Shown: one piece after another, positions 6,413-58,777 of the stretch
Position numbering within the stretch: the first letter of the stretch is position 1
Layout of the letters: each line of letters begins with the position of its first letter
Source: Octopus vulgaris
Taxonomy: Eukaryota
Assembly (NCBI GenBank): GCA_951406725.2
Contig: OX597825.1
Span: forward strand, 15,190,001 to 15,254,000
Length of the DNA stretch: 64,000 bases
Direction: 5' to 3'
Program-made: the position numbers and the translations under genes
Notes under the pieces: model-generated
What the model was told of the DNA's origin: nothing
The model's input: the letters and a program-made list of their open reading frames with translations, nothing else
The model's database searches: none

Positions 6413-6592
6413 GCTTTATTAAAACGCAGCAGAAATATCATAAATAATGTTACTTAGAGTTTCACGTTCGTGTTCATCGGATAAAACTCTCTGACGAACG
6501 GGACGTGAAACTCTGACTGAGTAACAGTTTAATGATTGTTTCTGCTGCTTTTTAATAAACCATATTACTCTACCTTTGGTATTCGAGCTCCG
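6413..6592. mobile_element. (TA)n-embedded inverted PLE terminal-repeat-like element; same family as 58583-58777
   Basis: Arms about 6413-6485 and 6486-6562 are reverse complements with a one-sided extension; HHR motif in both arms. Confidence 0.75.
6484..6530 (+). ncRNA. Minimal type I hammerhead ribozyme motif
   Basis: aaaCTcT CTGACGA ACG-GGA-CGT GAA ACTC-TGACT-GAGT A AcAGttt; canonical core, GUA triplet. Confidence 0.7.
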
Positions 6593-7332
6593 ATATATAT
6601 ATATATATATATATATATATATATATATATATGTACACACACACATTATATATATATATATATATGTACTACACACAAATACATACATGTACTGTCAGAG
6701 GCACACACACATACACAGACACGCGTGCACACACATATATTGCTGTAAATGGATGATGGCCGTCAACTCACGACTTGATGTGATATATCATCTTCTCCAT
6801 ATATATTGGTGACATAGGCCACGTGTTTTCTCTTCCCATTTCTTCCTCCCTATCTACCGCTCTCTCACTCTCTCTCACACATACACACTCTCTTCCCCAT
6901 TGTCTCTACGGTGAATTTCAAAGTCTTTTGTTCTTCTATTTTGATTGTTGATAATAGAATCACACAGAACCCTTTCAGATATCGGAAAAAATACAAAGCA
7001 AAAGGAATCAATCAAAAACAAAACAAAACAAAAAAAATAAACACTTGTTAAAATATAATTCTGGGTGGGTGGGTGGCTGTAAATCTAGATTTCACTTGAG
7101 AGCTAAAGTACATATGATATATATTCTTTGTTGTTTTGTAATCACAATGAAAGGAACCGTTTAATTATAGTACTTTGATTGACTGAAATGAACGGAAGGT
7201 ATAAGGAAATGTTGATTGCTTCACATTGTTGGCGTATATACAAAGTTTTGTTACTCGAAAGACTGTGTTTGATATATATATATGTCCATAATGTTAAATG
7301 GTTTAAATAAGTATATTTTTTGAATATATAGC

Positions 7333-7448
7333 TTCTTTGATACAAAACGGTATTCACGGATTCATTATCTTTTGTGTCAAAATGCCTATTTTTCTTTGAT
7401 ACAAAACGGTATTCACGGATTCATTATCTTTTGTGTCAAAATGCCTAT
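7333..7448. repeat. Perfect 57-bp tandem duplication
   Basis: TTCTTTGATACAAAACGG...AATGCCTAT at 7333-7389 and 7392-7448. Confidence 0.95.
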
Positions 7449-8604
7449 GAAATTTGATCCGGCCCTTAACTTTCAGGTTTCAAATTCCTTTTTATGAACG
7501 GGTCTCAAATTCCGCTTGGCCATTCACTCCTCTGTATCCGATAAAATGTACCAAGTAAGCTGTTAACTAACCCCTTGAGCTTAAATTAGAAACACTCACT
7601 TAAACAACTGCTGAAAGATGCATATTAATGGCATAACCTTTTTTTGCTGTTTTCACAGATTCCCATTACGTTCTGTAGCCATCAAATTCCCTTATTATGA
7701 ATTTAAACTGGGATTTTGATTCATAGTGAATCTTTCATTACTGATTAAGCAATTCCCATGGACATGTTGCAGTTATTGTCTTCATGGAGACTGGTAAACC
7801 TTACCATCGATCTTCTTGGATTCTTCCGCTCAAAATCAATAAGAGAAGCACTCTTGGCTCCGTTGAACTCTTCTGCTAAATCTTCACAACCCAACATGCT
7901 GCAGGCTCGTTACTCCGCCGTATCCCTCCGCCGTGACTGAAGGGGTGCTACACGCTACCAAAGGATAGTCTGTAACTATGCAGTTACTCCATGAGATATT
8001 TTCAAAGTACCCCCGTACCCAAGGCATAAATAGAAGCTAACATATATACATGTGTGTGCGTATGCCATTCCATACACATTGTTGGTCTGCTTCATTTTAC
8101 TTTATTCAACAACCCTCTAAGTCAGCTTTGGTCTCCTTCTATTTAATGCATTTACTCATTTCACTACCCCTCCACACACAACGAAATATTTATTTAACAC
8201 TTTAATACTAACTTTACACGCTACACCCACTTTTAGTTATGAATTCGCTCGATCCTTGTTTTGCAGTTAACACTTATCGACGTGCTATTAATATTATTTA
8301 CTATGTGTATTATTACATGAATGGGGAACCAATTGTTGAAACTGGCATAATGCATGTACCTATGCATAGGTTAATATAATGACATGTAATATGCATTAAC
8401 ATTGATTGGGTATATAGGTATGTGTATCCTTGAGTTTATGGATGTTGTATGTGAGATGGCACACGTGTATGTGTGTGTACATAGCTGTATATGTATATAC
8501 ATATATATATATATATATATATATATATATATATATATATATATATATAGGTGGCGTACAAAACAAATACATGTATTAGTATAACGCTCATGAATAGAAA
8601 AAAA

Positions 8605-8645
8605 GTAATTTACGTTTCGAGCCTACGCTCTTCTACAGAAAGAGA
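8605..8645 (-). ncRNA. Degenerate HHR-like motif (U6 core variant) in a (TA)n-flanked element at about 8550-8680
   Basis: Minus strand reads tcttt CTGTAGA A GAGC-GTAG-GCTC GAA ACGT A aattac; stem I is damaged. Confidence 0.45.
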
Positions 8646-55845: not shown

Positions 55846-56849
55846 TTTATCCAAACAAATTGATTTTTGGTGAGAGTACAGACAAGTTCAGCAGGAAGTA
55901 GCCCAACGATATATTGGTCATCTATATTTTTTTCTTAAGGTAAAAATTGGTCTAAAATTTATTACAAAATTTTTCAAAATATTGATTATTTTATCACGAG
56001 TTGCCTAGAAGCAAATTTTATATACACACGTGTGTATATTAATCTATAGAATAAAGAAGTTACGTAATGCAAAATTATCCGATAGAATTAGGTCCATAGA
56101 TAAAACCTCAAAAATAGTAATTTTGCAAATCTGATACAAACTAAATTATATAGAATTATTCAGCACCACCGGAAAATTCTCGACATTTTAACATTTCAGA
56201 ACTAGAATTGTCGTAACAGCAGATGCACTGGAAACAAAGTAGAATTCACAGGAAACTTTATGTTCCCTTTGAGGCTGAATTCAATAATAGGAATCTCGAA
56301 GTTCTTTTTTACGTATTGTTTGAAATCTAATTTTCATTACAACTGCCTAAAGATAATATGATGCTGAAAGAAATTTCCTGATGGTCAAATGGAAAAAATA
56401 GATTTCCCAAGATGTTCCATAGTGATTAGATATTTCTGAATCATCAGCCATAATATTGTGTGCTTATAGAGAGACAGTAGCCATGAGAATAAAACATGAT
56501 TTATGGTCGTTCACAGCCTCCTAATTTGATATGAAGGTAAACGTAAGGATTTACATGCATATATATATATATATATATATATATATATATATATATATAT
56601 ATATATATGTATGTATGTATGTATGTATGTATGTATGTATATATGCATATAGTAGAACAGGTTTTCCCGCGCATAAATACAAACAATAAATATGTAGCTA
56701 TTACAATACTTACTTATTAACTCAGCGATAATATTTTAAAAAGTTCCACCGACACTCTTTGTTCAGTCGAGAAAACGATTTTCCTTTATCGTGAAGTATA
56801 TTTTCCACCTAAATGTGGCTAACCGTTAAGGGTCGATGCTACTGTAGAT

Positions 56850-57230
56850 TGTAACCTTATTGATAAAGAGCGATTAGACAGACCATCCACTACAGATGAT
56901 GACCAAATCAAGTCATTAATTATGTTACCCCACCCTCCATATTCACCAGATATTGCTCCTTCGGATTTCTACTTATTCAGGTCTTTGCAGAATAGTCTTA
57001 ATGGTAAAAATTTCAATTCTTTGGACGACGTAAAAAGATACCTTGATGAGTTCTTTGCCATGAAACCATCTCAATTCTGGGAAGAGGGTATTTTCAATTT
57101 AAAGGAAAGATGGCGATGCATTGTGCAACAAAATGGTTCATATTTGGTTGATTAAAAATGTAATGGCAAGTATTTATTGACCTTTTTCTTTCCTTTAGAA
57201 GTCGGCACGAACTTTCCGGACAACAAAATA
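56850..57230 (+). mobile_element. Internally deleted mariner (D34D) 3' remnant
   Basis: ORF 56922-57155 LPHPPYSPDIAPSDFYLFRSLQNSL...WRCIVQQNGSY; upstream DKER..RPSTTDDDQIK piece; TIR-like GGCACGAACTTTCCGGACAAC. Confidence 0.9.
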
Positions 57231-58582
57231 CTATAGAATTGTTAAATAGTTTGTTTTTTTCTTGCATATCAACGTTTCTTAATCTTTCTCTATCTGTTTT
57301 ATCGAGACTACTAAATTTCCTGCATTCATAAAATGGTAGTTTTTGTACTCAGAATTATCAACCGCAAAATATAGACATACCGCTCTGGCTGCGAATGTGT
57401 TACATCTTAAAACCCTACGTCATATAAATGAATCTTTTGAACAGCAAAGGAAATCATTAATTTCATCCCTTCTTTTCATATGCAGTAACCAAGCAATAAG
57501 AATTAAAGCAGACTAAAAGCGCACTGACACGAATCTATCACAGGCCCCAACCGTATCCAAAACAGTTCAATTTAAATGAGAAAGAAATCTCTCATGCAAC
57601 TAACCTCACACTCTGCTATGAATGCCAGGTTGTCAATGATAAATGATACTTCTAAATACAGAGTGGTTGACCATCTAACTATTGATTTTTTTAAAGATAG
57701 ACATGTACCATCTGCTCATTTAAACTTTGTGAATAAAGTCTTTTGTATGTGCATCAATTCTCAGAGAAAACAGATTTACTTTCAGTGTCTGCAGTGTTAA
57801 GCAGATTACAGGTAATCCCATACATGACACAACTCTCTATGTAAATCTGACGGATTTGAAACAAACAAATAAATTATTTGTCAATTTTCGAAAGCTGCAA
57901 CCGTTTACTAAAGTTAATCGTGCCATCATCTAACATCTAACCAAATAAATTCATATATATTTTATACCACTCTTCATATCTTGGTAACATGTTATACACA
58001 GGCTTGCAACGCATATTTACGTACATAATACATGTAAAGTAGAATCTAGACTGATTTTCTGTCGAATCTAGACTGATTTTCTGCTACACAGCCACATTGA
58101 AAACAACATGTGCTGGACGAAGTGGCCTAATGATTGTTCATTCTCCTGTTCATAAATACTTCAGGAAACTCAATAGAATATGTCAGTCGAGTGTATAAAC
58201 TTCCAATGATTAAACGCACTTTTTCCTTGCTTATACACACACACACGTATATATATATTTCAGTGCAATTGGGTTTTTTTATACGGTACCTAGTTTACAA
58301 TCCCGTGAATAATAATAATGGTATTTTTATATAAGCTTAAAGTTTATGGCGATCACCGTGCAATGATTAACGAAAAGGGGGCATGTAAGACCTCACCAGA
58401 AAAGAGTGCTTTCCTAAGCCAGTGGGAGTCAAACCCACATCCGTTTGCTAATGCGACTAAGTGTGTTATATTTACACCAGCGAATCAGCATCCCTATTTC
58501 TGTCAAACATAAGAATTAAAATGGAATAATATATATATATATATATATATATATATATATATATATATATATATATATATAT

Positions 58583-58777
58583 AGTTTATTTAAAAGCAGC
58601 AGTAATTCAACAAAACCTGTTACTCGGAGTTTCAGTTTCCCGTTCGTCGGACAGTTTTTTGTTAAACAACAGGATTTGTTGAATTTCTGCTGCTTTTAAA
58701 TAAAGCATATTACTCTACACCCTGGTATTTGAGTACTCTTTATTCCACCTTGTTTCAAATTTATATGTTTACTCCGG
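58583..58777. mobile_element. (TA)n-embedded inverted terminal-repeat element (family of 6413-6592) with C4-variant HHR at 58617-58654 (-)
   Basis: Minus strand CTGT CCGACGA ACGGGAAACT GAA ACTCCGAGT A ACAG; arms TTTATTTAAAAGCAGCAG / CTGCTGCTTTTAAATAAA. Confidence 0.75.

Follow-up and report, generated by a model that had tools for sequence, protein, structure and literature searches.

What are the short non-coding elements that lie in (TA)n runs at eight places in a 64,000-nt stretch of the Octopus vulgaris genome (contig OX597825.1, positions 15,190,001 to 15,254,000; hereafter the window), and are the unusual cores of their hammerhead-like folds genuine? An earlier note had assigned these elements to about six families, each with its own variant of a type I hammerhead ribozyme. 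We found that seven of the eight are truncated or fold-back 3′ ends, that is, pseudo-long terminal repeats (pLTRs), of Penelope-like elements (PLEs), and that they belong to five families (A to E; Table 1). In three of these, a variant core is fixed: G3-C8 in family C, A6U in family B and U4C in family A, in the standard hammerhead numbering. With a probability of roughly 0.8, we regard all five families as 5′-truncated or fold-back PLE 3′ ends with minimal type I hammerheads, of which the three variant forms likely still fold under selection and would cut RNA slowly at best.

Most of the elements in the window are 3′ ends of Penelope-like elements

The window has a GC content of 34% and abundant (TA)n runs, and the eight sites were examined on both strands. 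Using a strict type I descriptor that leaves positions 3 and 8 open, we detected three intact motifs (40635 and 42480 on the forward strand, 42432 on the reverse strand). The chance expectation was 0.05 ± 0.22 per window (60 local shuffles), and about 2.2 Mb of shuffled loci gave two matches. Window copies beyond these three are decayed, and the core therefore had to be read per family and not per copy. All genome-wide searches used the 2.8-Gb O. vulgaris assembly, with one element from each of the five families and the element at 14542 as queries. Copies were counted with exact flanking patterns in which the seven core letters were unconstrained, which gives lower bounds, and core letters were tallied by eye among the 100 matches listed per pattern. 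Reversed patterns gave no match genome-wide for any family. Family-level copies have stems I and II, GAAA, NUH and a short palindromic stem III.

Direct linkage to reading frames with reverse transcriptase (RT) and a GIY-YIG endonuclease (EN) was found for families A, B, C and D; these open reading frames (ORFs) elsewhere in the genome support the PLE origin that the earlier note had inferred. For family C, locus L157 is a near-intact PLE that comprises RT (DKSG, YVDD), GIY-YIG and a CxxxCxxC linker. A truncated pLTR precedes it, and on the same strand the complete G3-C8 motif follows the stop at a distance of about 1.7 kb. Family C copies near 98% identity share the EN of L157, and the linker is short, as in Nematis rows (compared by eye). 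Loci L293-L295 carry Hydra-type RT/EN upstream of the family A motif, with YRDD, CxCX5C, CxxC and CxH present in the covered part, which excludes the DKT region. For family D, a Hydra-type frame stands between two direct hammerhead pLTRs 5.5 kb apart (L383, L384) and includes DKT, the CxCX5C linker, C-terminal CxH and a C-terminal EN; the D upstream-sequence pattern found one copy only, and the ORF was then reached via tandem spacing.

Among 30 family B loci selected for long upstream sequence, six had same-strand RT/EN similarity ahead of the motif (L236, L244, L247, L250, L253 and L254). A Neptune-type frame lies upstream of the B motif in L296 (612 codons) and L297, with a C-terminal GIY-YIG and a long CX2-5CxxC linker, and the likeness of its RT to the Neptune1_Ap row of the Craig supplement was judged by eye. 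The EN was C-terminal in all four linked families; the N-terminal EN of Naiad/Chlamys was seen in none of them. Pfam gave no informative family for four PLE frames. Two apparent links were rejected because they look like junctions with a different Neptune-type family that has its own U3-A8 3′ motif: the DKG frame adjoining family A in L027 and L159, and the family B copy in L227.

The type I layout proposed for all eight sites was borne out at seven. At the eighth (14542..14709, forward strand, CUGAUGA at 14563-14569), stems I and II have 0 bp beside the core; its sole genome match was itself (1/1 candidates), no real match occurred among the retrieved loci, and we rejected it both as a hammerhead and as a family. 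That site is indeed a chance look-alike, and a relaxed descriptor gives 3.2 chance matches per 115 kb. As an account of families A to E, chance resemblance within AT-rich repeats is refuted, and its probability is negligible: the strict descriptor finds three motifs in the window against 0.05 expected, the motifs stand at the 3′ end of PLE ORFs, and family A matches the published Hydra layout.

The flanks of the elements agree with PLE insertion. (TA)n directly follows the tail end in 15/18 copies of A, 28/29 of C, 26/27 of D and 16/25 of B, in line with the association already visible at the window sites; tails of E are followed by (TA)n in 5/57, and most E matches are internal to tandems. 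PLEs insert by target-primed reverse transcription, which is described as yielding 5′ truncation, inverted copies, a one-sided tail and (TA)n bias (PMC11167929, PMC8557442). According to the same sources, their GIY-YIG nicks AT-rich DNA, the RT starts copying internally, close to the 3′ end, and stubs result from truncation or inversion. The stub at 42253, for example, has a one-sided tail at its 42253 end. Copies of A, C and D are often truncated or inverted some 10-50 nt upstream of the core. For D, the core pattern has 144 matches, of which only seven exact ones extend as far as about 45 nt upstream; the choice of query may bias both observations.

Fold-back copies were common (18/30 loci for A, whose query is itself palindromic, 21/30 for D and 7/29 for C). 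Together with family E, which forms 583-bp head-to-tail arrays without coding similarity, they could speak for independent non-autonomous units, such as retrozymes or hairpins like miniature inverted-repeat transposable elements, that spread as circular RNAs by means of their own ribozymes. We consider this improbable in general and plausible for E only. Families A to D run upstream into 3′ untranslated regions and ORFs, the inversion centres differ from copy to copy, and the motifs of a fold-back copy lie on opposite strands, so that pairing within one transcript is impossible. Inverted partners are described for PLE insertions (PMC8557442). The PLE origin in the system that the earlier note envisaged is supported, a separate system of small elements is not: most copies are ordinary 5′-truncated or inverted PLE insertions and only E is retrozyme-like.

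Three of the five families have fixed variant cores

Family C, the Nematis-like family, has the G3-C8 core GUGAACA. Its first subfamily has at least 1,943 genome matches (GUGAACA in 96/100 listed) and the second, that of the element at 11231, at least 1,309 (85/100 listed), which gives at least 3,252 G3-C8 copies; C3-G8 was absent among the 200 family C matches listed. In assembled contigs from four runs of four organisms, the GUGAACA core had no variant at or above 10%, and loop II and the flanks varied. The copy at 11231 has lost G12 and is therefore predicted to be dead. A sister family in the same genome (58% protein identity; motif at L309:2562-2568) has C3-G8 in its core and, at position 9, either a C or a deletion. 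Its longest frames have 1,312 codons, its tandem copies are spaced by 4.6 kb, and its stem III is not palindromic. In L349, too, a C occupies position 9.

Family B, with at least 17,383 genome matches, is the most abundant. Position 6 was U in 96/100 and A in 2/100 matches listed, and position 7 was free (U36, A21, C18 and G10 among the 85 exact CUGUNGA rows listed). The genome also has three young Neptune-type PLE families (L220:2021-4279, L222:1870-4221 and L224:1665-4214), each followed by a U3-A8 motif, with intact frames of 753, 784 and 850 codons and an upstream ORF as well in the latter two.

Family A has at least 1,638 genome matches, and its core was CCGACGA (U4C) in 69/100 listed. 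At position 4, 87 of the matches listed had C and 10 had T, and nine had A in place of G5. CpG decay would give this symmetry of changes at positions 4 and 5, and the CUGACGA of the copy at 6413, which had been read as a core of its own, is likely a decayed U4C core. CCGAYGA cores were also seen in 6/14 copies of a B-sister lineage, to which L149 and the window element at 43406-43611 belong, and in one unrelated motif (L227:147), and U4C therefore arose or persists in more than one lineage.

The remaining two of the five families, which the earlier note had put at about six, have canonical cores. Family D has at least 144 genome matches and a CUGANGA core. Family E has at least 199, with CUGAUGA in 94/100 listed and a long loop II; the CUGAGAA taken for a core at 47084 results from a 4-nt deletion specific to that copy. 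Its 583-bp units lie head to tail (about ten in L153), have no ORF and each contain a complete type I hammerhead, the layout of a retrozyme. One further locus, L152, first appeared to be a 2.7-kb PLE and proved to be a local duplication. Family-fixed core variants are thus real, but the idea of six families with a variant each was not supported: two of the listed variants are damage to single copies, and one element is no repeat.

The variants escape standard annotation, as had been foreseen: neither Rfam nor CUGANGA descriptors detect them. Rfam gave no match in the window at the gathering score; Hammerhead_1 scored below threshold at 40629-40678 (14.5 bits against 34), and the G3-C8 motif had no hammerhead match. 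When E values up to 5 were admitted, the window gave 347 rows, and the 150 of these that were listed were microsatellite-driven miRNA and snoRNA matches.

Probable constraint on the fold

We then asked whether the fold is maintained. Among subfamily-level variable columns, pooled over families, 2/100 ribozyme-constrained columns varied against 25/281 others (Fisher p = 0.012, falling to 0.002 once the A stem III centre, which is unpaired, is treated as free). In an alignment of eight sequences of the C lineage, 90% of the cells pair, 10/13 pairs show two-sided change, and the 3-8 pair is C-G in four, G-C in three and U-A in one. U3-A8 cores belong to three intact Neptune-type families of this genome. 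With G-C in C, C-G in its sister and U-A in the Neptune-type families, one genome has thus fixed, in different families, three of the four possible Watson-Crick pairs at 3-8. Among metagenome loci with related RTs, 4/35 had a sense-strand motif behind the ORF (three C3-G8, one U3-A8); these four were kept by position and strand from eight matches, at a threshold that gives 3.2 by chance.

Folding of dimers favoured the double hammerhead for D (−21.2, equal to the minimum free energy of the dimer) and nearly so for A (−24.1 against −25.1). Stem III palindromes seen by family were ACUCYGAGU, ACGU, AAUAUU, ACAAUUGU, ACGUACGU, ACCGGU and ACAUAUGU. Family-specific palindromes of this kind could favour dimers within a family, but ACGU and ACCGGU are common to several families.

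Would the variant cores cleave?

Our preferred reading, in which the variant hammerheads still fold under selection, would place their action in transcripts of full-length master or tandem copies only, where the ribozyme may work as a dimer via its palindromic stem III or with the aid of the PLE protein. Solo and fold-back stubs such as those in the window would be dead by-products. Cleavage would differ among the variants. G3-C8 is predicted to be partly active because a PLE hammerhead is rescued in part by the C3G/G8C double change (PMC11167929), which is also the sole rescuing pair in the pairwise scan of a type III hammerhead (PMC9901934); in our judgement, measurable cleavage by family C is rather probable. 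In that scan, all other single and double changes in the core region, including U4C and A6U, gave low activity, and weak activity is therefore predicted for these two cores, unless they are helped by protein or by tertiary contacts. A viroid U4C variant is described as having low activity in vitro that is enough in vivo (PMC3088659). We put measurable cleavage by family A at somewhat below even odds, and that by family B seems more doubtful still.

Several findings weigh against the preferred reading. The column test was not significant for any family alone (p = 0.12-0.20). The C-lineage sequences were chosen with a descriptor that demands pairing, which makes the covariation partly circular, and the three G-C rows represent one lineage. 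Of 76 family B copies, 24% fail to form one particular stem I pair. The double hammerhead was not favoured for C (−28.8 against −32.7), B (−16.1 against −28.0) or E, no ORF or coding similarity was found for E, and the low activity reported in the scan covers U4C and A6U, the cores of families A and B. Finally, insertion in vitro does not need cleavage (PMC11167929).

These points raise the alternative that the variant cores are catalytically dead relics: a mutated master would have kept amplifying, as PLEs need no cleavage, and the fold would be kept by descent or protein binding. We consider this unlikely, though to be taken seriously. Naiads are reported to spread without canonical hammerheads (PMC8557442), changes at U4 and A6 lower activity in the data of both PMC9901934 and PMC3088659, and B, the most abundant family, shows erosion of stem I. 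G3-C8, however, takes a double change by which the tertiary pair is exactly restored, three intact Neptune-type families have U3-A8, and variation sits at free positions (N7, N17, loop II and the centre of stem III). Dead relics accordingly fit B and A better than C.

A stronger form of the preferred reading would be that the G3-C8 swap, otherwise known as a laboratory rescue only, and the A6U and U4C cores of highly successful families, which should cripple a free ribozyme, are natural and kept under structural selection because the protein of the element itself or a dimer partner restores cleavage. This is a tentative proposal with the odds against it; if true, these would be natural protein-assisted ribozymes and would offer a direct test of the purpose of PLE hammerheads. 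That purpose is an issue in itself, as cleavage is weak, protein-dependent in the one element tested and dispensable for insertion in vitro. In the octopus genome, elements with C3-G8, U3-A8 and G3-C8 that are young and near-intact occur alongside very abundant A6U and U4C families, and these are natural controls for whether selection acts on catalysis or on the fold only. CUGANGA descriptors miss at least 22,000 motif copies in this genome, and genomic hammerhead counts, as well as claims that a PLE lacks one, may therefore be too low.

Other features of the window

Table 1. PLE-derived features of the window
Feature	Positions	Strand	Core	Details
PLE RT remnant, family C lineage	1481..1573	+		about 31 codons, E 1.8e-7
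Family A fold-back pLTR stub	6413..6592	both	+ 6491-6497, − 6474-6480	decayed hammerheads; stem I broken, 4-nt duplication in stem III
Family B (Neptune-type) pLTR stub	8550..8680	−	CUGUAGA (A6U), 8632-8638	predicted cut site after 8611; stem I damaged on its 3′ side
Family C, second subfamily	11231..11431	−	GUGAACA (G3-C8), 11404-11410	
Decayed GIY-YIG endonuclease, C-terminal, Neptune-type	36720..37061	−		E about 1e-19; unlinked to any of the five families
Family D (Hydra-type) pLTR stub	40603..40774	+	CUGACGA, 40635-40641	intact canonical type I; stem III an 8-nt palindrome; predicted cut site after 40670
Family C fold-back stub	42253..42609	both		two intact G3-C8 motifs
Family C motif		+	42480-42486	predicted cut site after 42515
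Family C motif		−	42426-42432	predicted cut site after 42397
Decayed pLTR, sister lineage of B	43406..43611	+	CUGAAGA, 43481-43487	absent from the list of the earlier note
Family E partial tandem of 583-bp ORF-less unit	47084..47843	−	remnant, 47353-47359	
Family A fold-back stub	58583..58777	−	CCGACGA, 58644-58650	second arm is tail only; stem II broken

The PLE RT and GIY-YIG remnants that had been noticed in the window were both confirmed (Table 1). Tail fragments of B and, weakly, of D lie at 12365-12433 and 1872-1965, without the ribozyme part. Two pairs of inverted repeats (6151-6400 with 8867-9116 and 4505-4709 with 54244-54448; 91% and 95%) are probably other dispersed repeats. Translations at 33507-33854, 49708-50110, 56823-57155 and 59337-59855 resemble what we take to be Tc1/mariner transposase remnants, and the frame at 15226-16016 is presumably a zinc-knuckle (gag-like) one. 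Outside the window, the flanks of L036, L064, L081, L090, L097, L101 and L148 contain at least seven further unrelated canonical hammerhead families, some with a loop II of 40-60 nt.

Comparison with known systems

In the literature compared, with figure-only variants and the survey of Lunse et al. (2017) outside its scope, we found no natural G3-C8, A6U or family-wide U4C cores of PLEs and no octopus reports of them. The variants of Lunse et al. 2017, reportedly roughly 150,000, could include these cores.

The elements share much with the minimal type I pLTR hammerheads of metazoan PLEs as described by Cervera and de la Pena (2014, PMC4209133): the pLTR position, an extra nucleotide after A9, a short palindromic stem III, mostly solo truncated copies, opposite-strand pairs and U3-A8 covariation. 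The alignment rows compared from that paper have CUGANGA or U3 only, and G3-C8, A6U and U4C are not among them. With the Hydra clade, including Hydra-1_Obim of Octopus bimaculoides (Craig et al. 2021, PMC8557442), the Hydra-type families have DKT (seen in D), YRDD, CxCX5C, CxH and (TA)n insertion in common. Stem I and the ACUC-N-GAGU stem III of family A match published Hydra motifs, but all Hydra motifs in File S2 of that paper have CUGA cores, whereas family A has U4C; by motif, families A and D are both distinct from Hydra-1_Obim. Family B shares the C-terminal GIY-YIG and the CX2-5CxxC linker with Neptune PLEs (Neptune1_Ap-like) and differs by its A6U core, and family C, a candidate relative of Nematis PLEs, resembles them in the C-terminal GIY-YIG and short linker (by eye) and differs by its G3-C8 core. 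Family E resembles the non-LTR retrozymes, as they are presented in bioRxiv 10.64898/2026.07.22.740005, in its ORF-less tandem units, each with a type I hammerhead; among the five families, the likeness fits E only.

Natural core variants (U3-A8, A6C and the viroid U4C) are described as rare cases by Perreault et al. (2011, PMC3088659), whereas the variants found here are fixed in families of thousands, and G3-C8 and A6U do not occur in the compared text of that paper. Minimal hammerheads of PLEs, dimer cleavage, U3-A8, (TA)n bias, Hydra and Naiad elements of Octopus and ORF-less tandems derived from pLTRs are thus already known. New, within this mostly known system, are the family-fixed G3-C8, A6U and U4C cores, whose ribozyme activity is a prediction from sequence.

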